Shown in pieces: positions 3,429 through 54,907 of a stretch of 64,000 bases of DNA. Made by a program: the position numbers and the translations under genes. The stretch's first letter is position 1. Every line of letters starts with the position of its first letter. The notes under the pieces are model-generated. The model made no database searches. It was not told the origin of the DNA and saw only the letters and a list, made by a program, of their open reading frames with translations. The DNA comes from a virus (Duplodnaviria; Heunggongvirae; Uroviricota; Caudoviricetes): the IMG/VR virus record IMGVR_UViG_3300024272_000021. One strand, given 5' to 3'.

Positions 3429-3916
3429 GATTCACTCACTACCTTTGCATATTGATTGTCACTGGCAAGCTTAATTCCCAAGGTCTGATCATAATGTGGT
3501 TGTTGGTTTGGGATATATCGTCCAAACTTTACTATGATTGGGCCGTAATACTTTAGCCATTCTAACTTATCTTGAATTTCTTCTTCTCTATAACCAGTGT
3601 AAATTACAACTTCGTCTGGACTCCAGTACCTGAAATTTAGCAGGAAACACTGTAGGTCATCCCAACTATCCATAGGCTCTAATCCACCACACACTACAGC
3701 TTTAGTAATTGGATTATCCATATATCTTTCAATTAGTGAATTGACATGGATGTTAATATCGGGGGCTTGTGCGAGAGCACTGTTTTGACAACAATGCTCG
3801 CCGCACTCCTTTTCGCATTTCCATGTACAAGATGGAAATCCTATCACCATAGCTGGTTTTTTATAGCTTGTAAAATCTTCGTCTCGAATTTCTTTCACAA
3901 TCATATTAATCACCAA
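3425..3916 (-). CDS. nrdG: Anaerobic ribonucleotide reductase activating protein (NrdG-like radical SAM)
   Basis: CTWKCEKEC cysteine cluster and VVCGGLEP motif; adjacent to NrdD. Confidence 0.55.
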   Translation of the reverse strand: MVINMIVKEIRDEDFTSYKKPAMVIGFPSCTWKCEKECGEHCCQNSALAQAPDINIHVNSLIERYMDNPITKAVVCGGLEPMDSWDDLQCFLLNFRYWSPDEVVIYTGYREEEIQDKLEWLKYYGPIIVKFGRYIPNQQPHYDQTLGIKLASDNQYAKVVSES

Positions 3917-4424
3917 TTATAGAAGTTTCACCATACATCTGCGCAGTATCATACCACTCTCTAGCAGAGAACTCCTTAAACCTTTCTTTACTATAAGATC
4001 TAGAAGGTGTTAAGAAACCAACAACTCTTTGATATGTATCGCAAGCGGGTTTACCACACTCAGGACAAATCTCAGCGTCTACAAATCCATGATGATTTTC
4101 ACATACATTAATTTTAGTGTTGTAGCAGAAATAGATAACGCCCTGGCTTGCAATGTAGTTGAGCATTTCCCAAGCCATATCTGCATTCGGGAAGTTATTG
4201 TCGATATTAATATGCGCTATAGCTCCACCTGAACACTTATTATCCAAGATGGCACTCGTTCTAATCTTTTCATTAATAGTACATTTTTCAGTGAGAGGGA
4301 TCCACTGATTACTGTAAATGAAATTGTCGTGTACATCGAAAAGAATATTATCTTTAGCACAAAGCTTTACTGCTGCTTGTTCTGCCAATTCTGTTACTTT
4401 TTTGACCAACTTATTTCTTACCAT
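3906..4424 (-). CDS. nrdD: Anaerobic ribonucleoside-triphosphate reductase NrdD, C-terminal piece (glycyl-radical and Zn-ribbon region)
   Basis: RVVGFLTP glycyl-radical-like motif and CPECGKPAC zinc ribbon; continues the 502-aa N-terminal piece. Confidence 0.7.
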   Translation of the reverse strand: MVRNKLVKKVTELAEQAAVKLCAKDNILFDVHDNFIYSNQWIPLTEKCTINEKIRTSAILDNKCSGGAIAHINIDNNFPNADMAWEMLNYIASQGVIYFCYNTKINVCENHHGFVDAEICPECGKPACDTYQRVVGFLTPSRSYSKERFKEFSAREWYDTAQMYGETSIIGD

Positions 4425-5350
4425 TTTGCTTTAATAGCATCTGGCCCTTTATTGAACCTGATATTAAATTGCTCAATAATATCAGGATTGTTTCGTAAAG
4501 ATGTTTTATAGTTTTCGGTTTTAAAACCAATATCTGTATCATATAAAATTTTATATTCCAAATGATGTTCTTGACAGTATTTTTTTGCTGCTATAACTTC
4601 TGCTTCGAATCTTTCTGGATTGGTATAATTTAAATGATCAGATGGTTTAATTTCAATTAAATATTTGTCGTTTACTAATGCATCTGGAGTATAATGACTG
4701 CTTTTTGATAATTTAATTTGAAAAGGTTCTACATCATAGCATTCAACTGCATCGTTTTGCTCGAATAGTATAAAATAATTTAATTCTAACAAACTTCTAA
4801 AATAAACGTCTTTTTGTCCTTTAATGGAAAACATATAACCTTGTATTCCTCTGCCCATTTTAGCGTTTTTATAACACCCTCTGGCCCATGCATCTGAAAA
4901 CTTTTTTGGATCATTCCAAATTTCTCCTGATGCATATTTTGTAATCAACGTATTTGATATTTTTTGTCTGATTTCTGGCGTTCTTTCATAGCCTACGGGC
5001 GTTATCCCTTTATGGGACGCGCTTAAGTGCTGCACTCTTTCGTCCGAAAACGTTTGTCCAAAGGATGAATTTCTGCGCCCATAACTTTTACTAGTTTGAG
5101 GATTTAAATTATTTATAATTGAATTCATTTGATGATATGAATAATCATATAACGTTGCAATTTCTCCAATGCATAATTGATATTCATCATACAATATTAA
5201 AACATATTGTAAATCTTTTTGAATTACACCATTAATAATTTGCATATCATCAATAACCAATAACGGTTTCTTGTAGTGTTGAATTATGATTTTATTTCCT
5301 GTAATTTCCACCTCTCCAAATATTTTTCCTGAAGAGTTTTTACAAAACAC
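4418..5350 (-). CDS. Homing endonuclease: NUMOD3-type DNA-binding repeats plus a C-terminal PD-(D/E)xK nuclease motif
   Basis: LSASHKGITP...TPEIRQKISNTL NUMOD-like repeats; YTPDALVNDKYLIEIKP matches PD...E-x-K; lies between the two NrdD pieces. Confidence 0.6.
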   Translation of the reverse strand: MFCKNSSGKIFGEVEITGNKIIIQHYKKPLLVIDDMQIINGVIQKDLQYVLILYDEYQLCIGEIATLYDYSYHQMNSIINNLNPQTSKSYGRRNSSFGQTFSDERVQHLSASHKGITPVGYERTPEIRQKISNTLITKYASGEIWNDPKKFSDAWARGCYKNAKMGRGIQGYMFSIKGQKDVYFRSLLELNYFILFEQNDAVECYDVEPFQIKLSKSSHYTPDALVNDKYLIEIKPSDHLNYTNPERFEAEVIAAKKYCQEHHLEYKILYDTDIGFKTENYKTSLRNNPDIIEQFNIRFNKGPDAIKAKW

Positions 5351-5640
5351 AAAATCACTTCTTTATTTATCATTTGTTAGTGAGCAATTAATAAGTTGGC
5401 GAAGATGGTTCTTCCAGGAGTGTCTTTACACTCGACCATCTTTCTCACGTTTCATTATAAGATTATATCGTGAGTTCAGACTTTCGCATCTCTGTATAAT
5501 ACCTGCAGAGTTCTACCATTAAGTCGTTCACGCTGCCATTACGCTTGCGCCTTGTTGTCCATCTCTGGAGTTTCAAGTCAATTAGGTAAAATTTTCTTAA
5601 AGTAGTTTATGGATTATGCTACTTTGTGCCCACACATTTT
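4425..5640 (-). mobile_element. Intervening sequence splitting nrdD: the endonuclease ORF plus a ~260-nt non-coding structured stretch (group I intron candidate; boundaries approximate)
   Basis: 5351-5613 has no ORF and no promoter motif; minus strand shows GACTTAATGG / CGAAAG / GTCTGAAC core-like elements; T4 nrdD carries a group I intron. Confidence 0.45.
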
Positions 5641-7122
5641 AGGCACCGACTCAATGTTGAAAGAATATTCATCAGTAAAGCTATCTTTAGTTTCATTGAG
5701 AACATTAAAGATCTTTTCTGCAAATTCCATACCTTCTTCGGTATAGAACTTATTACCAAACTCGTCAGTATGGACATATCCGAACTTTTCAATGGTTTCG
5801 TAAAGTCCGAGAATTCCAACCGTGCAATATTGCTTGTCAATTTCAATACCGCCATCACAATAATTTGGCAGAAGATTCTTTTCTACGTTCCTCTGAATGA
5901 TGTGTCTCACTCTATCAAGTACCTTGCAGCACAGATTAGTTCTTTTCTTAAGAAGACTCAGATACTTCTTTTCTGTCAGCTCTTCGCCTAGTTCGTAGAA
6001 AATGTGTACCAGATTGATTGTATTAACCTTAACGGAACCAATACTAAGAGCGGTGCCTCCAATAGAGTTAATGAAACCACTAAGCTTAGAGGTGTCTGAA
6101 AGGAGTCTACAACAATTACTTAGTGTAGTTACGTCGCTGCTTACAAAGAAATTAGAGTCGTTCCACTTACAGTTGTGGTCTGAGCACCATCTTGCAAATT
6201 CTTCATCGACAAACTTGCCGTTTTTATATAGCAAAGAATAAGTCAAGACCGGGAAGGTAAACATATTTTCCTGTCTAATAGCAGAAACAACTTCCATGAA
6301 TATCTTCTGATGTTTAATAAATTCATCCACATAATCAATAGCAAATGTGCCGTCAGGGAATTCAAGTCCTCCAAAAAGTGCTTCATAATATTCCCTGTCA
6401 AAGATTGAAACATTGACGAAAGCGCTCTGATCTATTCTCATAAAGGGCTGATTAAGTCTATAAATTAGTTTCTGGAATGACTGTCTCGCATAATAGTCTG
6501 GATTATTGATGATATAACCTGTTTCACAATCTTTCTTCCAGAAATAATAAGTCCATACGAGAATATTAGGAATTCCAACTGCGCCTGAAGACCTGTTGCT
6601 CATGAAGCTAATAAACTCAATTACATCATCTACAAATGTAGTAAGATGCTTAGGAGGCTGAGAATTATAATTTTTCAAAAAGAATAAGCCTTCTGTCGCA
6701 AGCCTAGTAAGATCATACGCATAACAGTATGGAACATATGTAGTGGATGGAAAATCATGAAGATAAAATCCTCCAGTATATTCTGTTTCCAACCATTCTT
6801 TTGCGGTCTTTAGTCCATATTCTTTTTTGAGTTCGTAAAAAATCTTATTTGCTGCAATAACCTTATCTATTGCCTTGCCCTTTTCAGTTCTAAAAGATGC
6901 AATATCTTTATTAGAAGCATTTGCATTTGCATCAATAGTAACGTCTGCTACATTCTTATCGACAAAAGCATCAATAAAATCTGAAAAATTCATCTGAGAT
7001 TCGTGAATACCATTTAGTATTTCAAGGTCTTCACCATATTTATCCTTTAATGCATTTAAGGCTCTTTCGAAATCCTTATTAAATTTTAATGTTATGTCCA
7101 TATTTACTGCTCTCCAATCCAT
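5614..7122 (-). CDS. nrdD: Anaerobic ribonucleoside-triphosphate reductase NrdD, N-terminal piece
   Basis: 502 aa with class III RNR-like body, ending ...ESVPKMCGHKVA at a stop codon. Confidence 0.7.
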   Translation of the reverse strand: MDWRAVNMDITLKFNKDFERALNALKDKYGEDLEILNGIHESQMNFSDFIDAFVDKNVADVTIDANANASNKDIASFRTEKGKAIDKVIAANKIFYELKKEYGLKTAKEWLETEYTGGFYLHDFPSTTYVPYCYAYDLTRLATEGLFFLKNYNSQPPKHLTTFVDDVIEFISFMSNRSSGAVGIPNILVWTYYFWKKDCETGYIINNPDYYARQSFQKLIYRLNQPFMRIDQSAFVNVSIFDREYYEALFGGLEFPDGTFAIDYVDEFIKHQKIFMEVVSAIRQENMFTFPVLTYSLLYKNGKFVDEEFARWCSDHNCKWNDSNFFVSSDVTTLSNCCRLLSDTSKLSGFINSIGGTALSIGSVKVNTINLVHIFYELGEELTEKKYLSLLKKRTNLCCKVLDRVRHIIQRNVEKNLLPNYCDGGIEIDKQYCTVGILGLYETIEKFGYVHTDEFGNKFYTEEGMEFAEKIFNVLNETKDSFTDEYSFNIESVPKMCGHKVA

Positions 7123-14553: not shown

Positions 14554-15003
14554 TTACTTTAGTAGATTTCCAACAACTTTATTTACAATAGCCATATCGG
14601 CTTTGCCCTTGAGGTTAGCAGCAACAAGCTTCATAATTGCGCCGCGATTAGGTTTAGTTAGTTCAATATTATTATCTATCGCATAACTAGTGACTAGTAC
14701 CTGAATTGCTACTTCATCAGTAATTAGACTTGGCGCAAATTCACGGATGACTTCCATCTGCTTCTTATAATCCTCTAGAAGATCTGCGCGAGCTTCGGGA
14801 CAAGTATCAATCATTTCCTGGGTAATTTTCTTGGCCTTTAGCAGCTCGGCATTAACTATATCTTCAGGAATATTATCTCTGCAGCCTTTGTCGATAGCAG
14901 TATTCTTAATTCTTGCAATTATAGTAGAGATAACACTTTTACGAAATTTATCTCCTGATTTTAGAGCCTGAACCATTTCAGACTGTAGCTGTTGTATTGT
15001 CAT
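14554..15003 (-). CDS. GatB/YqeY-domain protein
   Basis: 149-aa helical protein with YqeY-like N-terminal region (QSEMVQALKSGDK...). Confidence 0.4.
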   Translation of the reverse strand: MTIQQLQSEMVQALKSGDKFRKSVISTIIARIKNTAIDKGCRDNIPEDIVNAELLKAKKITQEMIDTCPEARADLLEDYKKQMEVIREFAPSLITDEVAIQVLVTSYAIDNNIELTKPNRGAIMKLVAANLKGKADMAIVNKVVGNLLK

Positions 15004-15238
15004 AGTTTATTCTCCTTTTATAGTAAAGTCTTTATAGTTATTTGCACGATTGCAATTCTTATGAGAACAATTAAGTTCACAGCCATACACATAGTAACTA
15101 TTCGCACAAAATTTACAAATATCGTCTTTTGCAATATTCATAAGATAATATTTATAATTATCATAATTATCTAAATGTGAGTATTCACAAAGCAAACAGT
15201 TATCTTTGTTCGCAAACTGTTGGTGACAAGTCTCACAT

Positions 15239-15613
15239 TCATATATCACTTTCATGTCGTTCTTTCACCTGCTTAAAATATTCGTCCCATGAAAACCACT
15301 GATCTTTTATTAAATGCCCAATTCTTAGAATTTTACTGCCCCAACCCTCGGTCTCAACACGACAATGCTGGCCTATAAGTTCTTCCCAAGATTCCACTTC
15401 GAAAGTTTTCATGATCTCAATAATTGCGCCATATCCATCCCGAGAATAATATTCTCCTGGCTCATTAAACCAATGGTCTAAGCAGTATCCACCAGTAGTG
15501 CAACCCCAGCTATTGCCTTCGACAGTAATATATACTGTAAGACAGCCATGGTCTTCGCCGAGTTTGGTGTGGGTAATCTTACCATTTAAAATCTCCGCAG
15601 CCATATCTTTCAC
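15239..15613 (-). CDS. Hypothetical protein
   Basis: ORF. Confidence 0.4.
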   Translation of the reverse strand: MKDMAAEILNGKITHTKLGEDHGCLTVYITVEGNSWGCTTGGYCLDHWFNEPGEYYSRDGYGAIIEIMKTFEVESWEELIGQHCRVETEGWGSKILRIGHLIKDQWFSWDEYFKQVKERHESDI

Positions 15614-16158
15614 CTCAAATATTCTATTTTCCTATTTCTGTAAGTCTGGCTCGGTTTATACTTAAATATCACTTCGCTAATATCAAACTCAAAATTATAC
15701 ATGTCTGAGTTATAATATACAATATCAGTTGGAATAGCACATCTTGGTGTACAAGTAAAAGATCTAATTGTTGCTTCAGCGGCAATCATATCTCGTTTCA
15801 TTCCATAACGTTTTAGCCATTTCTTATTTATACGATGCTTCTTATGCCAACGCGCCTGAATCAGAATTGGTACATCCCAATATATTCTACGAGGTGTTTC
15901 TAGCGTTTCGAACATTGAATTAAATAGCGGCATGTTGATCTGTGTATTTTCACAAGCAAATTCTGCATTACCAATTGAATTAAGATTGATTGCAACATCC
16001 GACTCTGCTTTATCGGATAGCGGTGTGATAAATTCTTCAATTGTGCAACCTTCCGAGAACACAACTTGATTATCTGCAAGGTCAGATATCCACACTTTGC
16101 CAGGACTAAATGTTGCTATATTGCCGTTCATTGTTTGTACCTCAATTTCCAATTTCAA
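15610..16158 (-). CDS. Hypothetical protein
   Basis: ORF. Confidence 0.4.
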   Translation of the reverse strand: MKLEIEVQTMNGNIATFSPGKVWISDLADNQVVFSEGCTIEEFITPLSDKAESDVAINLNSIGNAEFACENTQINMPLFNSMFETLETPRRIYWDVPILIQARWHKKHRINKKWLKRYGMKRDMIAAEATIRSFTCTPRCAIPTDIVYYNSDMYNFEFDISEVIFKYKPSQTYRNRKIEYLR

Positions 16159-17389
16159 TCAGATACTTAATAGTCATCTGCTCTTCTTTGTAAACAACAA
16201 TCTCATCATTCCTCAGCATTCCTCTATCAGCATGAGCATGGAGGCAATTTGCACCAGGCTGAAACTGCTGAAGTTTATTGTAGTCAAGATTATAATATTT
16301 GCTATCAAAATTGTATACATCATAAGGTGTGCCGTATGCTACATCAAACAATGCCATATAAGCTGTATTATTACCGCCATGTGCCCAATAAGAACCCGAC
16401 AGAGAAGTGTATCCAATAGACTTCTGGCACTTAGGGGCATAGTAGCAACCGTAACCAAACATCTTGCCCGTAATAACTGCATTAGTAGGTCTTAGCACCA
16501 GGCCAGTCTTAATGATGCTCCAGAAATTTTCACTTCTACTTCCGTGGAACAACAATCTTGTATCCTTAATACCATTCTCTGCAACAAACTTATCAAAACG
16601 CTCCTGAGTTTTAAGATTCTTAACTCGCCAAGCCTTCCTAAATTTGCCTGCAGATTCGTTCATCAGAGTCTTAATAAGTGCTACGTCATCTGCCGTAGTT
16701 TCCTCCATCTCAAGACCAAGCTCTTCCAGAATAGTCTGCTGTTTCTTTTCAACTGTCTCAACAGGTTCATTATCAGGTTTCACATAAATCTGGCCGCGCA
16801 TAACGTCAAGAAGATCCTGCTCCTTGGAGATAATCTGTGCAAAATCTTCAACCTTATTAGCAAGATAATCTCTAACATTGCCCATCTTTCTCGGAATAAC
16901 AGTAAATAGCTTAAGCAGATTATCGTTAAACTCTTCAACTGCAGAACAAGAATTTGCAAGTGTATCAATAATCTTCTGTGCTGCGTCAACCATATCCTGA
17001 GTAACGGCGGATGCCTTGACGGTATAGTTCTTCTGAATAGTTTCACGAGCTAGACTCTGGAGTTTTTCTACGATAGCTCTTATAGCAGCATTCTCAATTT
17101 CTTTATAGGGACTTTCAGGATTGGTAGAGGAAATTTCCTCCACCAAATCCTTCTTTAGGTCTGTTATGTCCTGATAGCCCTTCTTAAGCTTGCTGCTAAT
17201 TTGCGAATCCCACTTGGACATAGGATAATATCTTGTAGTCTTAGTGGCATCAACTCTGCCATATTCAACTCTAAACTGTCCATCCTCAGGGAAAAGATTA
17301 TAATACTTATTATTGTTTGCAGTTGTTACCATAATCAAATAAGTAGGTCTAATCTCTGCCATAACAAAGCCTCCTCTTACAGTTCGCAA
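16142..17389 (-). CDS. PARP-like ADP-ribosyltransferase with an N-terminal WGR domain and intact H-Y-E catalytic triad
   Basis: FRVEYGRVDA (WGR); LLFHGSRSENFWSIIKTGL, TGKMFGYGCYYA and RNDEIVVYK match the PARP1 catalytic motifs. Confidence 0.75.
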   Translation of the reverse strand: MRTVRGGFVMAEIRPTYLIMVTTANNNKYYNLFPEDGQFRVEYGRVDATKTTRYYPMSKWDSQISSKLKKGYQDITDLKKDLVEEISSTNPESPYKEIENAAIRAIVEKLQSLARETIQKNYTVKASAVTQDMVDAAQKIIDTLANSCSAVEEFNDNLLKLFTVIPRKMGNVRDYLANKVEDFAQIISKEQDLLDVMRGQIYVKPDNEPVETVEKKQQTILEELGLEMEETTADDVALIKTLMNESAGKFRKAWRVKNLKTQERFDKFVAENGIKDTRLLFHGSRSENFWSIIKTGLVLRPTNAVITGKMFGYGCYYAPKCQKSIGYTSLSGSYWAHGGNNTAYMALFDVAYGTPYDVYNFDSKYYNLDYNKLQQFQPGANCLHAHADRGMLRNDEIVVYKEEQMTIKYLIEIGN

Positions 17390-17802
17390 ATCACAATCTC
17401 AACATCTGTATCTTCAAATACTTCACAAATAATATCGTAAACCTTAGACCATTCAAGACGATCCAATCCTGAAGCTATACGGGGCATAGCCAGCTTAGTA
17501 ACACTCATGAAATCCATCCATTCCTTCATAGATTCAAGTGCTGCTCTTACAGATTCATAAGTAGGCTTGTGCCAATACTTAGGCTTAGTTACAAGATTAA
17601 AAACGTTATCAATAGGAAGTGCTTCACCGCCGCGATATTCATAATTGTCATAACTTCTAAAGAGCTTAAAGCGCATGTTATATACGGAATCAAAAATCTT
17701 TGCAATACCGGCTCCAAGTGCGAAATCGGAGCTGATGCAGTGTGCAAGATAATATCCCTGAGGCATAGTAAAGAGGTCACGCTTTTCAGTAGTAATAGTC
17801 AT
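17377..17802 (-). CDS. Macrodomain protein (TARG1/OARD1- and DarG-like ADP-ribose hydrolase)
   Basis: YYLAHCISSDFALGAGIAKIF closely resembles the TARG1-type motif; overlaps the PARP-like gene stop. Confidence 0.6.
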   Translation of the reverse strand: MTITTEKRDLFTMPQGYYLAHCISSDFALGAGIAKIFDSVYNMRFKLFRSYDNYEYRGGEALPIDNVFNLVTKPKYWHKPTYESVRAALESMKEWMDFMSVTKLAMPRIASGLDRLEWSKVYDIICEVFEDTDVEIVICEL

Positions 17803-17823
17803 AGTTTCATTTCTCCTTTATAA

Positions 17824-18633
17824 TTAATTTTGTATTGTTATAAATTCATCTTCAATTACCAGTACGTTTACTTTTCCAGAATGAGCAACACAAGAGTCAA
17901 TTCCGATATAACCATCGCCATAAAACGGATCAAACTTTGCATCTTCTCCAAACACATCACGATCTTCTACAATTGCCCATGCTTCTGAGGTGTGCCAATG
18001 TCCGAACACCAATGTCTTATCAGGGAGTAGACCTTGTTCTGCAAGTTCAAATGGGTTTCCCCATCTTGCCTCTTCCCACTGTCTTTTATTAGCTTCGCGC
18101 CAATTTTCCATCTTAGAAAGCTTCCTATTGCGAATATACTGCTTTGGCAAACCATCGTCGTTATTCAGCGGAACAAATGCATGTACAAAAATATGATTCT
18201 GCGTTTCGAAATAATCTACCATACTGTCAAGAAATACATGTGTTCGTGCCAAAGCCCTGTCGCAACATTCAGCAAAGGTATAACCTTCACCGGCATTTCC
18301 AAGTTCATTTATTGTTTGAACCGTACCATTAGAATAATCGTAACTCCATGCTTCTCCACGCTCACAACATTCTTCAAAGAGATCTTCGTGATTTCCACGT
18401 ATCAAAATTTTACGTGGAAGAGTTCTTAAATATTTCATTACTTCAAGCGGATTTGGACCTCTGTCCCAATTATCACCGCATGAGATAAGCCAATGGTTTT
18501 CGTTATTCGGATCGAAACCTGCCTCATCAAGTGCTTCTCGCATTTCTTTATAGAATCCATGTATATCCGAAACTACAAAGAATGTATTCATTTTCCCACC
18601 TCTTCTATCTTTTATATAGCTATTATACACCAT
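17824..18633 (-). CDS. Calcineurin-like metallophosphoesterase (PPP family, lambda-phosphatase-like)
   Basis: VVSDIHG, CGDNWDRGP and RGNHE motifs. Confidence 0.75.
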   Translation of the reverse strand: MVYNSYIKDRRGGKMNTFFVVSDIHGFYKEMREALDEAGFDPNNENHWLISCGDNWDRGPNPLEVMKYLRTLPRKILIRGNHEDLFEECCERGEAWSYDYSNGTVQTINELGNAGEGYTFAECCDRALARTHVFLDSMVDYFETQNHIFVHAFVPLNNDDGLPKQYIRNRKLSKMENWREANKRQWEEARWGNPFELAEQGLLPDKTLVFGHWHTSEAWAIVEDRDVFGEDAKFDPFYGDGYIGIDSCVAHSGKVNVLVIEDEFITIQN

Positions 18634-18649
18634 TAATTTTGTATTGTCA
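18631..18649 (-). promoter_or_regulatory. Conserved promoter/leader motif that includes the ATG
   Basis: cattaattttgtattgtcaag; start of 17824-18633. Confidence 0.5.
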
Positions 18650-18667
18650 AGATGTGGAATGTAAAAA

Positions 18668-18700
18668 ATAGACCGTAGATTTACTACGGCCTATTTATAT
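18668..18700 (-). terminator. Rho-independent terminator
   Basis: gaccgtag/ctacggcc hairpin followed by TATTTTTTAC on the minus strand. Confidence 0.5.
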
Positions 18701-19008: not shown

Positions 19009-20133
19009 TTAAATCACCTTAAACATTTCATCTTCTTTATCAGAACCAAGAACATTACGAATGAAATCTGGTTTTGTAATTTCTTTAAACTGATTATTGC
19101 CCACACAAAGCTTATTATCAGTATAATTAAGCTGGGTAAAAACCACATTGGCTTCAACTTTGTTATTATACTGATTCAAATCTTTTTTAATCCTATCGAA
19201 AAGAGTATCGGTATTGAGATAACCAAAGCGAAGTTTACCCTGCCAAGGATTTTCTTCATTGGTTTTATCTACAATGCTTGCATTGATATTTTTCTTTTCA
19301 CATTCTGTTTCCATCGGACCAGCACCATGTCTGGTAATATAAGTACGTGAAACATAGTAGATATCTGTAGGAAGATTAAGAGCGGCAATATCTGCAGCAA
19401 TATTATAACCACCTACACTAGAGGGAGTAAGATGCGGAAAATTGCCTACATTGGACTGATCAAGAAGCAGACCCTGACCACCTTCATAGATAATAGTATC
19501 ATAAGAAGGATAAACCTCTTCAAACTGCTTAATCTGACAATTGTTTGTAATATAAGCCACTGCTCGCATCCAATTATCAAGGTTATAAAGCTCATCATTT
19601 TCAAATGCGCCGTTATATTCTTCCTGAATACGCTTTACTTTATTATATAGAGTATAAGAATCAAGTAATTCTGCCGCTTCAACAAGATAATGAGAGTTAG
19701 TGCTACGTTTAGACGCTTCAAAAATTCCCATACCACAGCTACCATGTTTCTTATTGCCGCGTTCAATCTCCTTCTTGCGATTCTGCATTATATCACAAGG
19801 AAGAATGACACGACAATGCGGATCGATATACACAGTTTCCTCAGTTAGCCAAAGAGTAATAGGGTCAAGAAGGAACTTATGATGATAGTAGGTATCGCCT
19901 CCAATCATATCGGAGGGACCAGTACAATGGAAGATGCGTCCACGCGCAGTATGTGCTCGCTGTGCCCCACCATTGTAGAGCACAGTCAGAACACGCTCAC
20001 CAGAACCAATTGCAGTTTCTCCTAGACAATAAGATACGAGACCCTTACCTTCATCGCCATAATTGGCCCCTACTACAACTTTGACTTTCTGATTCATAAT
20101 TATCTCCTTACCAAGAAATGCCGTTACTATCAA
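19009..20133 (-). CDS. Adenylosuccinate-synthetase-family enzyme, short form (PurZ-like candidate for 2-aminoadenine/Z-base synthesis)
   Basis: VVVGANYGDEGKG, NGGAQRAHT, IYEGGQGLLLD and SRTYITRHGAGPMETE align to PurA motifs; ~362-374 aa versus ~430 for cellular PurA. Confidence 0.65.
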   Translation of the reverse strand: MIVTAFLGKEIIMNQKVKVVVGANYGDEGKGLVSYCLGETAIGSGERVLTVLYNGGAQRAHTARGRIFHCTGPSDMIGGDTYYHHKFLLDPITLWLTEETVYIDPHCRVILPCDIMQNRKKEIERGNKKHGSCGMGIFEASKRSTNSHYLVEAAELLDSYTLYNKVKRIQEEYNGAFENDELYNLDNWMRAVAYITNNCQIKQFEEVYPSYDTIIYEGGQGLLLDQSNVGNFPHLTPSSVGGYNIAADIAALNLPTDIYYVSRTYITRHGAGPMETECEKKNINASIVDKTNEENPWQGKLRFGYLNTDTLFDRIKKDLNQYNNKVEANVVFTQLNYTDNKLCVGNNQFKEITKPDFIRNVLGSDKEDEMFKVI

Positions 20134-20953
20134 CGGTTACACCAGTATCATTTGCCATATGATCTCTAACAATATTAGAAATAATCTTGGGCAGTTCATC
20201 GGACTTCGCAATGTAAAGTCGTTCGCCTAGCACTTTGCCGAAGGAACTCTTAATACTATCTTTGTATATACAATAGGAGCTGTTATTAGTAATTGCAATA
20301 TGGTAAATATCAAACTTCTTACTTGCAGTTTCATACAGAACCTTAGTGTCTACATCTTCGGTGGATGCACCAAGAGTATTACCAAGGGCATAACCAGGAA
20401 GATAAGGATTGAGAGGCTCATCGCCAAGAGTAATGATAATGCCCTTTTTACCACGCTTCCAACAGTCAAGATTGGTATGATTCAGACCAAAATACCATGC
20501 GGCAGTGTAAGACTCAAAACCATTACCACCACCGCCACCTTCCATATAAATCTTAGTAGTCTGGTCTAGGATACGGATATCGCTTTCAAACTGTGTAGCC
20601 TGAATAGGTGCACGGTCATAAGCAAGATCTCCAATGCCCATCATCATGAACTCTACGTCCTTAACCTCAGAGTATAGAGAGGTCATAATTTCATCAAGCT
20701 TACCTGCACACATGGTTGCGGCAGGGCCCATAGAACCAGTAACATCAAGACCAAGAATAACGGGAATAGTTTCGGGATGTTCGTCGCTATCAAAACATTC
20801 ACGCATTACACCACGCGGGTTAAGCATAGGATCGAGCATCTTTGCACGATAAACATCCTGCGTAGAAGCTATAGACATAACATCTGCACTTGCAAAACCC
20901 CAATCACGAACAGTTGCTTTATAAGCAGCAGTAGTCCAAGTTCCGCCTCCCAT
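20108..20953 (-). CDS. vWA-domain protein (MIDAS DxSxS)
   Basis: ILGLDVTGSMG motif. Confidence 0.55.
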   Translation of the reverse strand: MGGGTWTTAAYKATVRDWGFASADVMSIASTQDVYRAKMLDPMLNPRGVMRECFDSDEHPETIPVILGLDVTGSMGPAATMCAGKLDEIMTSLYSEVKDVEFMMMGIGDLAYDRAPIQATQFESDIRILDQTTKIYMEGGGGGNGFESYTAAWYFGLNHTNLDCWKRGKKGIIITLGDEPLNPYLPGYALGNTLGASTEDVDTKVLYETASKKFDIYHIAITNNSSYCIYKDSIKSSFGKVLGERLYIAKSDELPKIISNIVRDHMANDTGVTVDSNGISW

Positions 20954-21552: not shown

Positions 21553-21655
21553 AATTATTGTCTCCCTTTTGTCATTAATTTTGTATTGTTACCCGATGCC
21601 ATTATTATACTTTATTATGCTATAATTGTCAATGGGTTGATCAGTTAAGTGTTTG

Positions 21656-32534: not shown

Positions 32535-32611
32535 TGGTCGGGGTGACAGGACTCGAACCTGCGGCCCCATGCTCCCAAAGCACGTGCGCTACCAAACTGC
32601 GCCACACCCCG
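32535..32611 (-). tRNA. tRNA-Pro (anticodon UGG), CCA encoded
   Basis: cloverleaf folded by hand: acceptor CGGGGTG/CACCCCG, anticodon loop TTTGGGA, T-arm GGTTCGAGTCC. Confidence 0.8.
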
Positions 32612-32734
32612 TTATGAAATTGACGGCTTGCATACTTTTGGCTAACGACTGCCGTCATGCCGAGTAAATTCATTACTATATCCCATTCTAACTTCTGCGA
32701 ACTATCACCTATATGGGCAAGTCGGTTAGTTCTG

Positions 32735-32844
32735 TGGTGGACGGGGAATGGATTCGAACCATCGTAGTTCATCTTTACCTAGGATAGTGTGACTGAACAC
32801 AGGACTTACACACCCTGCCCCTTTGACCACTCGGACACCCGTCC
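32735..32844 (-). tRNA. Class II tRNA, Tyr-like (GTA), 110 nt, with an apparent 8-nt anticodon loop and a 35-nt variable arm
   Basis: acceptor GGACGGG/CCCGTCC plus CCA; D-arm GTCCGAGTGGTCAAAGG resembles bacterial tRNA-Tyr; anticodon region CAGGG-TGTGTAAG-TCCTG. Confidence 0.55.
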
Positions 32845-32993
32845 ATAAATTGGTTCCGTTTTCAAAGTTACATCTCAGCTTACCGAAACGGTTTCCATAA
32901 ACTTTAGGCATCTCACTTTTTCGTTAGGTGCAACGCTGCTTCTAGTACCACATATTAGCCTGTGTTTGAGAAGTAGTAACAATCAACCCAGCC

Positions 32994-33069
32994 TGGTGCT
33001 ACAGATGGGAGTCGAACCCATAAACGCTTGATTTTGAGTCAAGATGATATGCCAATTCTCTACTGTAGC
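32994..33069 (-). tRNA. Class I tRNA with anticodon CAA (reads UUG), 76 nt, CCA encoded
   Basis: acceptor GCTACAG/CTGTAGC, anticodon stem CTTGA/TCAAG, loop CTCAAAA, T-arm GGGTTCGACTCCC. Confidence 0.65.
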
Positions 33070-33072
33070 ATA

Positions 33073-33159
33073 TGGTGCGCGTGAAGCGATTTGAACGCTC
33101 AATCCCTACCGGGCGCGAGATTTTAAGTCTCGAATGTATTCCGATTCCATCACACGCGC
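33073..33159 (-). tRNA. tRNA-Leu (anticodon UAA), class II, CCA encoded
   Basis: anticodon arm CGAGA-CTTAAAA-TCTCG, long variable arm, T-arm GCGTTCAAATCGC. Confidence 0.75.
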
Positions 33160-33344
33160 ATATTAAATCAGTATTTGAGCTATAGGACTTTCACCTATAG
33201 GAGCAATGGTTGGATTGACTGCGCATATCGTACCAACAGGTCTTTATTATAATCTCATAGGATTATATATTTGTAATAAAGCCGACCAAGCTTGTAATTA
33301 TTGCATTGCTTTTTCATATTTTGTACTTTTAAGAGATCTTCTAC

Positions 33345-33417
33345 CGAAGTCAATTGGACTTGAACCAAATCCCTGCGAGCTACGCACTCGCCGTGCTGTC
33401 CGCCTACACCAGACTTC
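33345..33417 (-). ncRNA. tRNA-like RNA with imperfect cloverleaf (stem-loop GCGAG-TGCGTAG-CTCGC, T-arm TTCAAGT), no CCA; sits immediately downstream of the Ro60-like gene
   Basis: 7-bp terminal stem GAAGTCT/AGACTTC, T-loop-like GGTTCAAGTCC, non-canonical position 33. Confidence 0.4.
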
Positions 33418-33530
33418 TAAATCCCTGCTCCCTAATAGATGCTATTGTACAGATAGCGTATTCTATTAGCTGTACGTGGAGCATACTCAATATGGCTTTG
33501 TACTCACTACTCAAATATTATATTTTTAAA

Positions 33531-35126
33531 TTACCAGGTTAGTGCTTCCTCAACAGGAGCATAACGTTCAGAGTTCAGAGTTTCCAGTAGACACTCATAA
33601 GGATCAGTCTTGCCACTCATGACCATCTTTGCAACGTTAACGGAGAAGCCGCTAACCAGTGCCACACCAAGTTCATTTTCCTTTACAGGAATAGTACCGG
33701 TGCGAGAATTTACATTCCAGAACACAAGACGAGGAATCTGGTATCCTGCATCCGCATACCTCTTAGCAATTACGTCGAACAGTCGCTTATCAGGATTGCT
33801 GCCATATCTACCATTACCACACCTTGCGCAACTGTTAAATTCCATATCAGAGATAATCAGAATATTCTTAGGTAGTTCTTCCTGATGCATATGGTTATTA
33901 ATTGCAGTAGTAAGAATTAGATCGAACACCTTTTCAATATTTGTATCTGCTACTTCATTATGTGCAAAAGCAATCTGAAGCTTGTCGTGAAGAGACTTTG
34001 CCTTGCTGAAATCAACAAACTGAGGATTATGAGAGAAGGTAATATACTTGTCCTTAAATCCACCAGAGGAATGTTCCGCAAAGTAAATAGCAAGTGCATT
34101 GGCAACGTCAAGTGCTGTTACATTAGAATGAGGATCGACAGTACAAGTCATGCTACCAGAACCATCGGCTACAACAATAGTATTGTCACAACCATTAACC
34201 ATGTCAGGCAGTGCCTTCCACAGAGCCTCAATTGTTGCATCTTTTGCACCTAGACGAGAATACCAGCCGCCGTTACCCATGTACTTATGAACAACATCAT
34301 GAGGGAACAGAGTGGATGCATTAATCTTAGTTTCACCCTTTTCAAGCTTGTTAAGATATTCTCGGCGACGAGTTTCATCGTTTCTCAGGAATGCATTATT
34401 GTAGATAAGGTTTGCGCGAGAAGGAACTGCTTCATACTTAATTTCAGACCAGTTCTTATCAGACATCTTAACTTCAACAACATCAAGATACTTGCGAAGC
34501 TTACTGAGTGCCTTACGATATTCGCGCTCGGTTATGTGCAGTGCCTTACACAGCTTCTTACCATATCCCTTAGTCTTTGCAGAGGATGTATTAATAGAAG
34601 GCATCCACTTTGCGATTAGAGAAATGGAGTTTCCTGCGTTCATATTATCCCAGTCCTGCTTAAGCTGCTGATCGATAATCTTGTATATTACTTCGGCTGA
34701 TCTCTTATTATCAAGCAGACACCATAGATCGTCATAACGACCATACTCTGAAATTAGATTGATAATAGGAATAACCCTTGCAGGATTAGTTTCAATTAGA
34801 TTTTCAAGTACTACTCTGAACAGCCTACGCTCTCCAAGACCGCCACGAACATCTCTGGCATAAAACAGCCACTTCATAGCGAGAATCTCATCCTCTGCAA
34901 AAACTTTCATGAATCTCTTTGCAACTTCCGCATCAGTCATCTTGCGAAGAGATGCGACTGCGAAATTCAAATCGAGTAGTTCCTTACCAGTGGTTCTAAA
35001 TCCAACCATTCCATTTTCAGTGATGGAAACATTGTACTCGTTGTTTAGAGTCTGCTTAACTGCGTTCATAAATTCCATTGTATTTTCCTCCATTTTTGAT
35101 TTTATTCCTAAAACCTCAAGACACAT
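33531..35126 (-). CDS. Helical N-terminal domain plus C-terminal vWA/MIDAS protein; Ro60/TROVE-vWA-like (DUF2828-type) architecture
   Basis: VVADGSGSM MIDAS motif about 200 aa from the C-terminus; long helical N-region; 531 aa. Confidence 0.5.
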   Translation of the reverse strand: MCLEVLGIKSKMEENTMEFMNAVKQTLNNEYNVSITENGMVGFRTTGKELLDLNFAVASLRKMTDAEVAKRFMKVFAEDEILAMKWLFYARDVRGGLGERRLFRVVLENLIETNPARVIPIINLISEYGRYDDLWCLLDNKRSAEVIYKIIDQQLKQDWDNMNAGNSISLIAKWMPSINTSSAKTKGYGKKLCKALHITEREYRKALSKLRKYLDVVEVKMSDKNWSEIKYEAVPSRANLIYNNAFLRNDETRRREYLNKLEKGETKINASTLFPHDVVHKYMGNGGWYSRLGAKDATIEALWKALPDMVNGCDNTIVVADGSGSMTCTVDPHSNVTALDVANALAIYFAEHSSGGFKDKYITFSHNPQFVDFSKAKSLHDKLQIAFAHNEVADTNIEKVFDLILTTAINNHMHQEELPKNILIISDMEFNSCARCGNGRYGSNPDKRLFDVIAKRYADAGYQIPRLVFWNVNSRTGTIPVKENELGVALVSGFSVNVAKMVMSGKTDPYECLLETLNSERYAPVEEALTW

Positions 35127-35279
35127 ATTACGTATTTAGATTAAAAGTCTAAGCGTTATATAAGGTTGCTGTTCGTGCCTTTGGAGGTTTTATTTCACGA
35201 GAGACAATAAATATTTCTTAATTCTTGGCAAGAAAAACTTAAATGAGATTGCTGTTTGTCTCTCTTATTAAATTAGGTT

Positions 35280-35396
35280 TGGTCGAGCGAGAATGAGTCG
35301 AACATCCGTCTGCGGCTCCCAAAGCAATATCAAATTGCAGTTAAAGTCTTCATCAAGACTCAATTTTACGCCGTGCTACCGTTGCACCATCGCTCG
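35280..35396 (-). tRNA. Elongated tRNA-like gene (117 nt) with a ~40-nt internal insertion, CCA encoded; anticodon unresolved (contains a TTTGGGA Pro-like loop sequence)
   Basis: acceptor CGAGCGA/TCGCTCG, D-arm GTGC-AACGGTA-GCAC, T-arm GGATG-TTCGACT-CATTC; internal hairpins GTCTT-GATG-AAGAC and GCAAT-TTGAT-ATTGC. Confidence 0.45.
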
Positions 35397-35405
35397 ATAT
35401 AAAGT

Positions 35406-35531
35406 TTGCCAGAGGTGGGGCTCGAACCCACGACCACGAGCTTACAAGGCTATATCTGTAAACTTGCTGTACGTGAAATTTTCATTTCACGTTGGTTGAT
35501 GTACGTGCTCTAACCAACTGAGCTACTCTGG
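35406..35531 (-). tRNA. Elongated tRNA-like gene (126 nt) with a ~50-nt insertion holding a perfect 9-bp hairpin and the ACAGCAA motif
   Basis: acceptor GCCAGAG/CTCTGGC, D-arm GCTC-AGTTGGTTA-GAGC, T-arm GTGGG-TTCGAGC-CCCAC; direct repeat ACGTACA flanks part of the insertion. Confidence 0.45.
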
Positions 35532-35537
35532 CATATA

Positions 35538-35651
35538 GTGTGGGAGAAAGGAGTTGAACCTTTAACACTCGGATTCCTTGAAAGCTTGCTGTTAGTGGCA
35601 ATCATGTCACATTTAAGACTTGTCTGATGCTCTGCCATTGAGCTACTCCCA
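35538..35651 (-). tRNA. Elongated tRNA-like gene (114 nt) with a ~40-nt insertion containing the ACAGCAA motif
   Basis: acceptor GTGGGAG/CTCCCAC, D-arm GCTC-AATGGCA-GAGC, T-arm AAAGG-TTCAACT-CCTTT. Confidence 0.45.
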
Positions 35652-35660
35652 CATATAAAG

Positions 35661-35763
35661 TTGCGGCGGATGAGATTCGAACTCATGTAGTATCCTTATA
35701 CTAGAACATTGCTGTATGTATCTTAACTAGATGCGTTAGCCTTAAACCACTCGGCCACCGCCG
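35661..35763 (-). tRNA. Class II Ser-like tRNA (103 nt) with an ~18-nt extra segment in the anticodon-arm region containing ACAGCAA
   Basis: GCGGCGG-TG-GCCGAGTGGTTTAAGGC 5' half matches bacterial tRNA-Ser; variable-arm hairpin TAGTAT-AAGG-ATACTA; T-arm ATGAG-TTCGAAT-CTCAT. Confidence 0.45.
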
Positions 35764-35998
35764 CATATTCAATTAGTGGGATTTTAGAGAACTCTCGGAA
35801 TCGAACCAAGAAGCAACATATTTCCAGTATGTTTATGTAAAAATTGCTGTTCGTGCCACCCACTCGATGCACTTTAAAGCTGCCACCAGACGTTCTCATG
35901 TTTCAAGACGCATAATTTAAAGGCGGTTCAGACCTTTTAAAAGTAGAAACATAATAACTTAAAATCTTATTAATCTTTAAATTTGCTGTATGCGTCTT

Positions 35999-36017
35999 TC
36001 ATTAATTTTGTACTGTC
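35999..36017 (-). promoter_or_regulatory. Conserved promoter-like motif copy placed to drive leftward transcription of tRNA array 2
   Basis: cattaattttgtactgtcg; only a 10-codon mini-ORF follows. Confidence 0.5.
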
Positions 36018-36083
36018 GTTTGAACTGGATACAGTATAACATATATTCCATGTTCTGTCAATAGGGTTTCTAAATCTTAACAA

Positions 36084-36156
36084 AGCGTCCCAGGAGAGAT
36101 TCGAACTCCCGATCCACGGCTTAGAAGGCCGTTGCCTTATCCACTGGGCCACTGGG
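36084..36156 (-). tRNA. tRNA-Arg (anticodon UCU)
   Basis: acceptor GTCCCAG/CTGGGAC, anticodon arm ACGGC-CTTCTAA-GCCGT, T-arm GGGAG-TTCGAAT-CTCTC. Confidence 0.8.
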
Positions 36157-36248
36157 ACATAAGTGCATGGTAGTATATTCTGACGTCACGCCCCCATGCT
36201 GAGCGACTCTTTATCCTGAGTAAGGCGTGTTATCCTTCCGAATAACTA

Positions 36249-36341
36249 TGGCGGAGGTGGTGAGCTTCGAACTCACGCGCCGCATTTCTGCGACCTAAGA
36301 GGTTAGCAACCCCTCCCCTTCAACCACTTGGGTACACCTCC
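36249..36341 (-). tRNA. tRNA-Ser (anticodon GCU), class II, CCA encoded
   Basis: acceptor GGAGGTG/CACCTCC, anticodon loop TTGCTAA, long variable arm, T-arm GTGAG-TTCGAAG-CTCAC. Confidence 0.75.
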
Positions 36342-36347
36342 ATAGAG

Positions 36348-36434
36348 CGGAAGGAGTGGGATTTGAACCCACGGTAGTTTTACCTACGCTGGTTTTCAAG
36401 ACCAGTGCAATAAACCGGACTCTGCCACCCTTCC
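36348..36434 (-). tRNA. tRNA-Ser (anticodon UGA), class II
   Basis: GGAAGGGTGGCAGAGTCCGG...CTGGTCTTGAAAACCAG resembles bacterial tRNA-Ser(UGA); T-arm GTGGG-TTCAAAT-CCCAC. Confidence 0.75.
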
Positions 36435-36577
36435 GTATAACAACTACTTATTTTCCAGCAGTCGAATTCTGCGCTTAATCTTGTTAATAATATTCTCATT
36501 CGCAACAGGATCTCGCTGCTGTAGCATATGCATTCTCATCTTAAGCATTTCAATCTTACTGTTCATCTTACTTCCTC

Positions 36578-36790
36578 CTAATTATGTGTCTTCCATACGA
36601 AGTTACAGTGCTTACTATCCGAACAATCACAAGTGTCATCGTTTGCACAAAAGAAACATGGTGAAATTCCCTTTGCACACTTCTCGAAGTCGGATTCCAT
36701 GTCCTTAAACATAGCCTTGAGGTTAGCAATTTCATCGAGCATATTCTGTCGTTCCATTGCTGTCAGTTCGTTATGCATTACTGTTACCAC
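36578..36790 (-). CDS. Hypothetical Cys-rich small protein
   Basis: ORF. Confidence 0.35.
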   Translation of the reverse strand: MVTVMHNELTAMERQNMLDEIANLKAMFKDMESDFEKCAKGISPCFFCANDDTCDCSDSKHCNFVWKTHN

Positions 36791-36810
36791 CTTTGTAATT
36801 TAATTTAATA

Positions 36811-36885
36811 TGGAGGCCCAAGTCGGGAACGATCCGACGACTAGGGGTTACAAATCCCTTATTTTGCCAACTAAACTATTGGGCC
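36811..36885 (-). tRNA. tRNA-Thr (anticodon UGU), CCA encoded
   Basis: acceptor GGCCCAA/TTGGGCC, anticodon loop TTTGTAA, T-arm GTCGG-ATCGTTC-CCGAC. Confidence 0.65.
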
Positions 36886-36932
36886 ATATCTTATGGAAGC
36901 TTCGTCTCAAACTGGTTTACCAACCATTAACT

Positions 36933-37451: not shown

Positions 37452-37916
37452 ACATTTATTTTTATTATTTTTATACCATGTATCACGTTGTTCTTGTGTT
37501 AATTTGCTCCAGTGACTGCATTTTTGAACGTTTTTATTTTTAAAATCTCCAATTACTCCCGTTTTTATGAATCCACAGTCTTGGCATTCTCCATTATATA
37601 AATAACGTCCATATTTATCTTTTTCTTCTAATAATTTAATAATTTTATATATGCCAAACTGGCATCCTACATAAATATTTGGATTTATCCCATAATATCA
37701 ATCACTTCTTTTGTTGATAATAAAATGGCTGGGGATAGAGGTTCTGCCCCCCTACTTTTTGAGTCAAAGTCAAATGTACTGCTATTATACGAATCCCCAT
37801 TAGGTGGTTAACTAACTCTCTTACAACAACCAAGGATCAACACAGATTCGAACTGAGTTCCCCACCAGCTTCACACCAACGCCAAAGCTTAAGACCCAAG
37901 GTTTAGAGTTTAATAT

Positions 37917-37992: not shown

Positions 37993-37999
37993 ATGTTAG

Positions 38000-54894: not shown

Positions 54895-54907
54895 TTGTTG
54901 GAATATT

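Follow-up and report, generated by a model that had tools for sequence, protein, structure and literature searches.

The window analysed here, a stretch of 64,000 nucleotides, comes from a large phage that appears to infect clostridia-like bacteria. A sequence-only reading had placed three ORFs between positions 16142 and 18633 and had described them as a functional trio consisting of a WGR-PARP, a TARG1/DarG-class macrodomain and a PPP-family phosphoesterase. The three ORFs were found at these coordinates, all on the minus strand, and two of the start codons were revised. Read along the minus strand, the features of the locus are the following:

18666-18696, minus strand: terminator-like hairpin (13-bp stem followed by a T run) closing the upstream transcription unit
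18622-18650, minus strand: sigma-70-type promoter match, TTGACA - 17 nt - TATAAT (12/12), a consensus match that predicts transcription
17824-18591, minus strand: metallophosphoesterase of the lambda-phosphatase/ApaH PPP type, 255 aa (Pfam Metallophos and motifs)
17377-17802, minus strand: predicted TARG1-type macrodomain ADP-ribosylhydrolase, 141 aa, with an AAGGAGA ribosome-binding site ahead of the ATG
17584-17586, minus strand: codon of macrodomain K73 (TARG1 K84)
17461-17463, minus strand: codon of macrodomain D114 (TARG1 D125)
16142-17362, minus strand: PARP, 406 aa plus stop, with GAGGAGG 8 nt before an ATG that lies 14 nt past the macrodomain stop codon
17165-17347, minus strand: WGR domain of PARP, about aa 6-66, aligned to the PARP2 WGR domain (beta-sheet plus helix in the model), with the motifs NNNKYY, Y34-G35-R36 (17255-17263) and KKGY
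16787-17095, minus strand: helical (regulatory-type) domain of PARP, about aa 90-192, from the PARP1/2 helical-domain alignment and model helices 92-191
16145-16714, minus strand: ART catalytic domain of PARP, about aa 217-406 (Pfam PARP and alignments)
16544-16546, 16442-16444 and 16202-16204, minus strand: codons of the ART triad H273, Y307 and E387
14554-16131, minus strand: downstream co-directional ORFs (173, 124 and 82 aa) and a YqeY-like gene (14554-15003)

For PARP, the ATG at 17362 is more likely than the TTG at 17389 because of the GAGGAGG motif upstream and because database homologues begin likewise. For the phosphoesterase, the ATG at 18591 is more likely than a start at 18633 because the latter position falls within the predicted promoter. 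Ahead of the phosphoesterase, macrodomain and PARP genes, a terminator is followed by a sigma-70-type promoter match without a mismatch, which makes co-transcription of all three probable, with the phosphoesterase as the probable first gene of the unit. The macrodomain and PARP genes each have their own ribosome-binding site. No terminator was found between PARP and the downstream ORFs; within the clade, no conserved downstream partner was found and the gene 3' of PARP varies among relatives. The 2.5-kb region had no megablast match in 50,697 phage records, and relatives were recognised at the protein level only. They belong to a family of large phages (about 100-200 kb) related to Clostridium phage c-st, whose hosts appear to be clostridia-like. 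Recombinases are encoded by the same phage.

The domain organisation of the PARP was established with a profile of 11 homologues and a structure model. The window protein matches Pfam PARP (E 4e-22, exceeding the cut-off), and the family profile matches human PARP2 (E 2.7e-32) in one stretch running through the WGR, helical and ART domains. The window PARP itself matches neither Pfam WGR nor PARP_reg; among the 11 homologues, Pfam WGR (PF05406) matches seven (best E 2.7e-11) and PARP_reg (PF02877) only two. Residues 134-250 align to the PARP1/2 helical domain, both with phmmer and with the family profile. In the AF2 model (pLDDT 81.7) helices occupy residues 92-191. Foldseek ranked the PARP1 WGR-CAT chain, in a DNA-bound structure, first among the matches of this model, and PARP2 on a DNA break also stood among the best. 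The residues H273, Y307 and E387 align to PARP1 H862, Y896 and E988 and are invariant among the 11 homologues and likewise among 60 sequences, so that the catalytic residues are kept on careful alignment and the WGR domain and complete H-Y-E signature proposed earlier both stand, in a protein more likely of 406 than of 415 aa. The NAD+-site residues of PARP1-3-like enzymes are kept in the ART domain as well. The H-Y-E triad alone does not discriminate between poly- and mono-transferases. No NCBIfam model matched the protein.

These features assign the phage protein, from its sequence and model, to PARP clade 1 (PARP1-3-like) with a WGR-HD-ART architecture and a predicted transferase activity. 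With human PARP2, PARP3 and the WGR-HD-ART core of PARP1 it shares the domain order, the NNNKYY and (W/Y)GR motifs, the triad and the NAD+-site residues. It differs in being only about 16-18% identical in structural alignments, in its length of 406 aa with neither N-terminal extension, zinc fingers nor BRCT domain, and in the replacement of the WGR Trp by Tyr (EYGRVD). Tyr at this position is usual among bacterial PARPs, which likewise combine a WGR with a catalytic domain and have a helical region missed by Pfam (PMC5966428). The bacterial and phage enzymes compared were those of Herpetosiphon aurantiacus, C. difficile CD160, the 'clade 1' Cytophagales and Clostridiales, and gp031 of Cellulophaga phage phi4:1; the window PARP is 25-40% identical to phage and Cytophagales homologues, and the characterised bacterial PARPs all fall outside the window-phage clade. 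Homologues were found in at least 290 IMG/VR stretches and among more than 4,600 database proteins. WGR-PARP genes are already annotated in Cellulophaga, Klebsiella and Xanthomonas phages, and papers from 2014 and 2022 had described WGR-PARPs of phages and bacteria (PMC4245714, PMC9503650). The unusual character claimed for a phage WGR-PARP was therefore overstated.

The 141-aa product of the gene upstream of PARP matches human TARG1 over its full length (residues 3-139, E 4e-26, about 40% identity). DarG is matched at E 4e-11, and among PDB chains the macrodomain is far closer to TARG1 (4e-26) than to DarG (0.025). K73 and D114 correspond to TARG1 Lys84 and Asp125, an equivalence checked through chain offsets and PMC8501950, and K73 is aligned to the catalytic Lys of DarG, K80. 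K73 is invariant in all 78 members of the phage macrodomain family, whereas D114 is kept in 57 of the 78, Asn or Gly replacing the TARG1 Asp in about a quarter of the family. The Pfam Macro score of the window protein (16.3 bits) lies below the cut-off of 22, and the NCBIfam DarG model covers the macro part only, with 30.7 bits where the cut-off is 250. From its sequence the protein is a TARG1-type predicted hydrolase, in agreement with the class first proposed. A DarG antitoxin was rejected as its identity: the C-terminal DarT-binding domain is absent from the 141-aa protein, and the neighbour is a PARP, not DarT. DarTG is likewise a two-gene system combining a transferase with a macrodomain of this class; its writer is DarT, not an H-Y-E PARP with a WGR domain.

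The macrodomain class raises the possibility of a counter-defence eraser that strips ADP-ribose added by a host transferase (DarT2-type or similar) from phage DNA or RNA, with PARP unrelated and merely co-transcribed. On enzymatic grounds, such a role in countering DarTG-type defence is plausible. TARG1 undoes the modification made by DarT and relieves its toxicity (PMC8501950), and experiments have shown that phage macrodomains can act as anti-DarTG2 factors (PMC13309987). AdfM of phiKZ (gp104), an eraser of this kind, is a distant homologue with its catalytic Lys aligned, and TARG1-like genes stand alone in phages LP65, Fnu1 and G. We nevertheless consider this reading unlikely in view of the distribution of the two genes. 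In 79 of 80 IMG/VR loci, PARP is preceded on its own strand by the macrodomain gene. After clustering of PARPs at 90% identity this gene was found upstream in 42 of 49 clusters and was absent or further away in the other seven; it was also upstream in 11 of the 17 genome-collection contigs with a PARP identity of at least 46%. The adjacency holds over PARP identities from 54% to 92%, even where the macrodomain is down to 26-40% identity, which is unexpected for independent functions. Among the IMG/VR loci, two subtypes of the macrodomain can be seen. The near-obligate adjacency thus points to a matched writer and eraser rather than to an anti-DarTG role.

In loci without the macrodomain (L092, L118, L123, L125 and others), no ADP-ribose hydrolase domain was seen in the gene directly upstream of PARP. 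With an HMM of the 78 family members, no TARG1-type neighbour of distant PARPs was detected in Cytophagales chromosomes, three huge-phage loci, phi4:1 or XacN1; in Klebsiella phage FBKp34 a TARG1-type gene was found 2.4 kb upstream of PARP with the same HMM. The distant PARPs without such a neighbour indicate that the pairing is specific to the window-phage clade. The bacteria studied have a PARG (DUF2263) as their eraser, with its gene located elsewhere in the genome, whereas in the window phage the TARG1-type gene is directly upstream of PARP. A crude motif test of the six frames of the window revealed neither a PARG signature (GGG-x6-8-QEE) nor a Nudix box; with no PARG motif, the paired model does not account for what becomes of released chains, if chains are made. 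Each enzyme type was known in phages before; the fixed PARP/TARG1-type pairing is the new part.

The conserved unit across relatives is the macrodomain-PARP pair only. The phosphoesterase is a lineage-specific neighbour outside this module. It belongs to the PPP family, as had been proposed, since the metal-binding motifs (DxH, GDxxDRG, GNHE) common to lambda phosphatase, ApaH, PrpE and the bacterial Pnkp phosphoesterase module are kept (D9-I-H11, G-D40-N-W-D43-R44-G and G-N67-H68-E) and Pfam Metallophos matches at E 3.8e-13; a lambda phosphatase match has E 8e-10. Among PDB chains, the best relatives are lambda phosphatase (5e-11) and ApaH (3e-7), with PP1 also among them, in alignments confined to the N-terminal 70-90 residues or so. 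NCBIfam matches are all far below cut-offs. The likeness to ADP-ribose/cADPR phosphodiesterases suggested by the sequence-only reading did not hold: no ADPRibase-Mn chain occurs among the best 60 of 95 PDB matches (E<=10) of the family profile, nor among the best matches of the single sequence.

If the phosphoesterase assisted the pair by breaking down ADP-ribose, its cyclic form or related nucleotides derived from NAD, the one predicted promoter common to the three genes of the window phage and the short gaps between them would be explained. Such a trio appears very improbable, as only 9 of 80 related loci have the phosphoesterase along with the pair, and in those nine a DHH/RecJ-type gene stands between the two. 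In these loci the phosphoesterase always lies beside genes for an RNA ligase or a PNK-like kinase. It occurs in three lineages, each time within about 1-5 kb of kinase and ligase genes, as separate genes with no fusion. A single kinase-phosphoesterase-ligase family, phrog_8238, is matched in one part by the neighbouring kinase and in the adjoining part by the phosphoesterase (1e-10 for the phosphoesterase), and weak Pnkp-type matches were also seen with TIGR04075 (0.0019) and the C. thermocellum Pnkp phosphatase (4j6o, 0.026). The gene more probably belongs to the adjoining RNA-repair set of kinase, phosphoesterase and ligase, and a phosphoesterase beside the pair should not be assigned to an ADP-ribose pathway in annotation.

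The genomic context of the pair is one of replication, repair and nucleotide metabolism. Recurrent neighbours in the 49 clusters are DNA Pol III alpha (23), NAD-dependent ligase (13), NrdD (13), an ERCC4-type nuclease (11) and a PD-(D/E)XK nuclease (10), and in locus L044 the LigA gene abuts the macrodomain gene. Combined with the homology, the architecture, the catalytic residues and the gene linkage, this context leads us to favour, with modest confidence, a two-gene ADP-ribosylation module in which a TARG1-type eraser is matched to a writer of WGR-HD-ART type gated by DNA breaks. The predicted activity, break gating, targets and biological role would be as follows. The pair, set among these genes, would be transcribed from the consensus host-type promoter in the window phage. 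By analogy with PARP1-3 and the DNA-dependent PARP of Herpetosiphon, the WGR domain may bind where replicating or damaged DNA is nicked or broken, and this binding would relieve inhibition by the helical domain. The H-Y-E active site would then use NAD+ to ADP-ribosylate PARP itself, other proteins on Glu/Asp, or DNA. The Lys73/Asp114 pair of the macrodomain would finally strip protein- or DNA-proximal ADP-ribose and reset the mark. Bacterial PARPs are active in vitro, the Herpetosiphon enzyme being DNA-dependent (PMC8120803, PMC5966428), and human TARG1 is functionally paired with a PARP1-type writer, the two enzymes writing and erasing DNA ADP-ribosylation (PMC11102865).

Two further readings concern the pair. 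Firstly, PARP could be an NAD+-consuming or ADP-ribosylating toxin checked enzymatically by the macrodomain, in a toxin-antitoxin-like, addiction or exclusion system that stabilises a plasmid-like prophage or excludes rival phages. Two-gene transferase-macrodomain modules are known (DarTG, and sirtuin-macro pairs, PMC9503650), the neutraliser gene stands first, and the phage has recombinases and is related to c-st, a plasmid-prophage. We regard such a system as quite improbable: PARP retains a WGR and a helical regulatory domain, which are characteristic of gated enzymes and not of constitutive toxins, the macrodomain is a bare 141-aa domain with no toxin-binding extension, and the pair lies inside replication/repair operons with a strong promoter common to other genes. 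In addition, no PADLOC defence-system model matched PARP. Secondly, the pair might reversibly cap nucleic-acid ends or bases with ADP-ribose instead of marking proteins, which we judge rather unlikely. The ADP-ribose would be attached through phosphate at RNA ends or at nicks and breaks in DNA, or through a base in the single-stranded DNA of replication intermediates. The modification would then determine when the phage nucleases, its RNA ligase and its NAD-dependent DNA ligase can act, or protect ends against host exonucleases. On this reading, the human PARP1-TARG1 DNA-ADP-ribosylation axis would have a minimal viral counterpart in the pair.

For the favoured module of matched writer and eraser, the clade offers a compact and abundant pair, a 406-aa writer and a 141-aa eraser, each of which is predicted to act on the other's product. 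What has been reported so far for prokaryotic and phage PARPs is the in-vitro automodification of two bacterial enzymes only. The pair is a tractable system in which to ask whether DNA-break-gated ADP-ribosylation with TARG1-type reversal already operates in bacterial viruses, and on which targets. As minor observations on the locus, a neighbouring gene encodes an adenylosuccinate-synthetase homologue that is a candidate PurZ, and the Rfam search returned tRNAs only.

Three co-directional ORFs span 16142-18633 on the minus strand of the window. The coordinates of the sequence-only reading were those of the longest ORFs; the three ORFs stand, and internal ATGs fit better as the starts of PARP and of the phosphoesterase gene. 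For PARP, the better supported start is the ATG at 17362 (406 aa), which lies 14 nt past the stop codon of the macrodomain gene and carries GAGGAGG 8 nt 5' of it; the identical 406-aa protein is called in at least 24 metagenomic contigs. For the phosphoesterase gene, it is the ATG at 18591 (255 aa), the start at 18633 being overlapped by a promoter match. The following features were identified:

18696-18666 (-), terminator-like hairpin of 13 bp, followed by the promoter match, ahead of the phosphoesterase gene
18650-18622 (-), promoter, perfect consensus match TTGACA-17-TATAAT
17802-17377 (-), macrodomain gene, with its own AAGGAGA ribosome-binding site

Because this hairpin and promoter lie ahead and no terminator-like site was found downstream of PARP as far as 14000, the three genes and four small downstream ORFs are probably transcribed together by host polymerase as a single unit in this phage, as judged solely from consensus matches. 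A second perfect TTGACA-17-TATAAT match (21604-21632, -) precedes the upstream operon, which comprises a 198-aa ORF, a vWA-like gene and an adenylosuccinate-synthetase homologue and ends at the terminator 18666-18696.

The domains and the H-Y-E triad first attributed to PARP were confirmed. Pfam PARP matches residues 243-404 (E 4e-22) and phmmer aligns residues 134-356 with the PARP1 helical and ART domains. The window protein itself has no Pfam match to WGR or PARP_reg; a profile of 11 homologues, 7 of which match Pfam WGR and 2 PARP_reg, aligns with human PARP2 in a single stretch from WGR through ART (E 2.7e-32). A tyrosine replaces the WGR tryptophan (EYGRVD), a state common among bacterial PARPs (PMC5966428). 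Residues H273, Y307 and E387 align with PARP1 H862, Y896 and E988, and K314, S315 and Y318 with K903, S904 and Y907. Across a 60-sequence alignment (members 36-94% identical to the window protein) as well as among the 11 sequences, H273, Y307, K314 and E387 never vary; neither do S315 and Y318 among the 11, and Y318 is nearly constant among the 60. The AlphaFold model (pLDDT 81.7) comprises an N-terminal beta-sheet-plus-helix domain, helices at 92-191 and an ART fold. Its best Foldseek match is the PARP1 WGR-CAT chain on a DNA double-strand break (4dqy_C, TM 0.66), with PARP2 on DNA also among the best. The sequence would be compatible with either chain-making or single-unit ADP-ribosylation.

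An alignment of the 141-aa macrodomain protein with human TARG1 spans the full length (E 4e-26, about 40% identity), and the protein had been correctly assigned to the TARG1/DarG class. Its similarity to TARG1 far exceeds that to DarG, whose models match more weakly (PADLOC 4e-11; NCBIfam 30.7 bits, cut-off 250). The catalytic lysine of TARG1, K84 (K80 in DarG; PMC8501950), has its counterpart in K73, which never varies among the 78 family members gathered. D114 corresponds to TARG1 D125; the Asp is kept in the window protein and in 57 of the 78 members, and 19 have Asn or Gly instead, a count that pools the whole family. The anti-DarT2 factor AdfM of phage phiKZ is a distant relative with the lysine in common. 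Macrodomains beside PARP fall into two groups, about 52-87% and 26-40% identical to that of the window (loci L037-L111), both retaining the catalytic Lys, and in most loci of either group the PARP next to them shows the same level of identity (55-60%). The eraser gene would thus seem to have evolved faster or to have been replaced.

The extent of linkage was assessed across 80 IMG/VR loci with a PARP sharing 54-92% identity with the window protein. All but one of them (79) have a TARG1-type gene upstream of PARP on the same strand, usually directly adjacent. When PARPs were collapsed at 90% identity, the macrodomain gene was found within 6 kb in 42 of the 49 clusters, and no other gene family was comparable. 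In some loci an insert of ~0.8 kb splits the two genes; in contig L044 (5228-6014) and the similar L045-L051, it is an ORF that resembles homing endonucleases and has an AP2-type motif, and the NAD-dependent DNA ligase gene ligA directly abuts the macrodomain gene. A counter-defence eraser of the AdfM type is enzymatically plausible; it would however leave this linkage to PARP unexplained.

No TARG1-type neighbour of PARP was found in Cytophagales chromosomes (about 40% identity), huge phages, Cellulophaga phage phi4:1 or Xanthomonas phage XacN1. Since these more distant PARPs lack it, the pairing is a trait of this clade of large phages related to Clostridium phage c-st and not of all phage PARPs. 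Klebsiella phage FBKp34 has a TARG1-type gene 2.4 kb upstream of PARP, and phages LP65, Fnu1 and G have TARG1-type genes alone. The chromosomes of the Cytophagales Fibrisoma and Spirosoma have, immediately upstream of PARP, a gene with a pPIWI_RE_Z domain and, after PARP, a small conserved ORF homologous to gp030 of phi4:1 (PARP-flanking ORFs: L131 5310-5801, L143 5432-5830; L136 7182-7496; L002 6157-6621). These genes appear to form a separate PARP-centred module, perhaps linked to defence. Annotated vWA proteins adjoin or lie near PARP in XacN1 and another phage contig (L004 6240-6890; L173 3185-3856). In the window, 20108-20953 (-) encodes a 281-aa protein with a MIDAS-like DVTGSMG motif (phrog_2971; no Pfam match). 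The association of vWA with PARP may be recurrent.

The third gene had been proposed to complete a functional trio. This is poorly supported: the phosphoesterase is found in 9 of the 80 loci, beside RNA-repair genes, and the macrodomain-PARP pair alone is conserved. Its PPP-family assignment holds (DxH, GDxxDRG and GNHE motifs), and among solved structures it is closest to lambda phosphatase (5e-11), ApaH (3e-7) and PP1; the C. thermocellum Pnkp phosphatase module matches weakly (0.026). The suggested ADP-ribose/cADPR phosphodiesterase activity found no backing, as the best 60 of 95 PDB matches with E<=10 include no ADPRibase-Mn chain. NCBIfam matches are all far under cut-offs and cover the first 70-100 residues only. 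Three observations indicate that the gene travels with RNA-repair genes: the gene orders of two loci (RNA ligase, kinase-HD, phosphoesterase, DHH/RecJ-like, macrodomain, PARP in L042; kinase-HD, Thg1-like, phosphoesterase, RecJ-like, macrodomain, PARP in L010); an RNA ligase, an RlaP-like nucleotidyltransferase and a PNK-like kinase 3.4-6.8 kb upstream in the window phage (22033-25374, -); and the matching of consecutive segments of phrog_8238, a kinase-phosphoesterase-ligase family, by kinase and phosphoesterase. Its most likely role would thus be the healing of RNA ends, at about even odds; it may also be a protein phosphatase or Ap4A hydrolase.

Within a phage of ~170 kb, the window corresponds to the arm for replication and nucleotide metabolism, with Pol III alpha, a RecJ-like nuclease, primase, DnaB, a Sak4-like protein, NAD-dependent LigA, NrdD/G, dUTPase and 10-12 tRNAs. 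Recurrent neighbours of the pair among the 49 PARP clusters were:

Pol III alpha, 23 of 49
LigA, 13 of 49
NrdD, 13 of 49
ERCC4-type nuclease, 11 of 49
PD-(D/E)XK nuclease, 10 of 49

Combined, homology, conserved catalytic residues, tight linkage and the replication and repair context make a matched writer-eraser pair the best-supported reading, from which we infer activity, targets and role. PARP would be gated by DNA breaks via its WGR and helical domains, by analogy with PARP1-3 and the Herpetosiphon enzyme, which needs DNA (PMC8120803). The macrodomain protein would take off proximal ADP-ribose from Glu/Asp or DNA, as TARG1 does (PMC8501950, PMC11102865). A toxin-antitoxin-like pair, with precedent in DarTG and sirtuin-macro systems, is argued against by the regulated PARP architecture and the operon context.

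Contrary to what had been thought, a WGR-PARP is not unusual in a phage. Phage PARPs (Aeh1, phi4:1) were described in 2014, when viral TARG1-like genes were also remarked on (PMC4245714), PARPs are among the commonest viral ADP-ribosyltransferases (PMC9503650), and GenBank already annotates them; bacterial 'clade 1' Clostridiales PARPs of this architecture were catalogued in 2018 (PMC5966428). Among viral transferase-hydrolase pairs, a 2022 survey names only a few, ART-ARG and sirtuin-macro being examples (PMC9503650), and no account of a conserved operon of the PARP/TARG1 type came up in a limited literature search. What appears to be new is this conserved pairing; each enzyme type was already known in phages.

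Pol III alpha of the window shares 58% identity with its counterpart in Clostridium phage c-st and 52% with those of phiCD211-type phages, and bins of related contigs are mostly Clostridia, which makes a clostridial-type host likely. The phage may be temperate or live as a plasmid prophage, as c-st does, to judge from a large serine recombinase gene and two tyrosine integrase genes next to each other (86-2023, - and 53920-55882, -). One operon upstream of the pair, the divergent adenylosuccinate-synthetase homologue (19009-20133, -) matches phrog_1211 (phage PurZ-type, 8e-42); NCBIfam PurA (2e-19) and PurZ (5.8e-7) are both far under cut-offs, and an ordinary PurA is the best solved relative. 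This phage may or may not make 2-aminoadenine DNA. The anaerobic ribonucleotide reductase (3906-7122, -) is apparently split into an N-terminal part (5614-7122) and a C-terminal part (3906-4424) with a TnsA-like endonuclease ORF (4418-5350) in between, which suggests a mobile insertion or intron. In the tRNA cluster (32535-38512, -; 12 tRNAs by Rfam), two tRNAs (35539-35652, 38000-38142) may contain introns, since they are unusually long and were found by Rfam and missed by ARAGORN.
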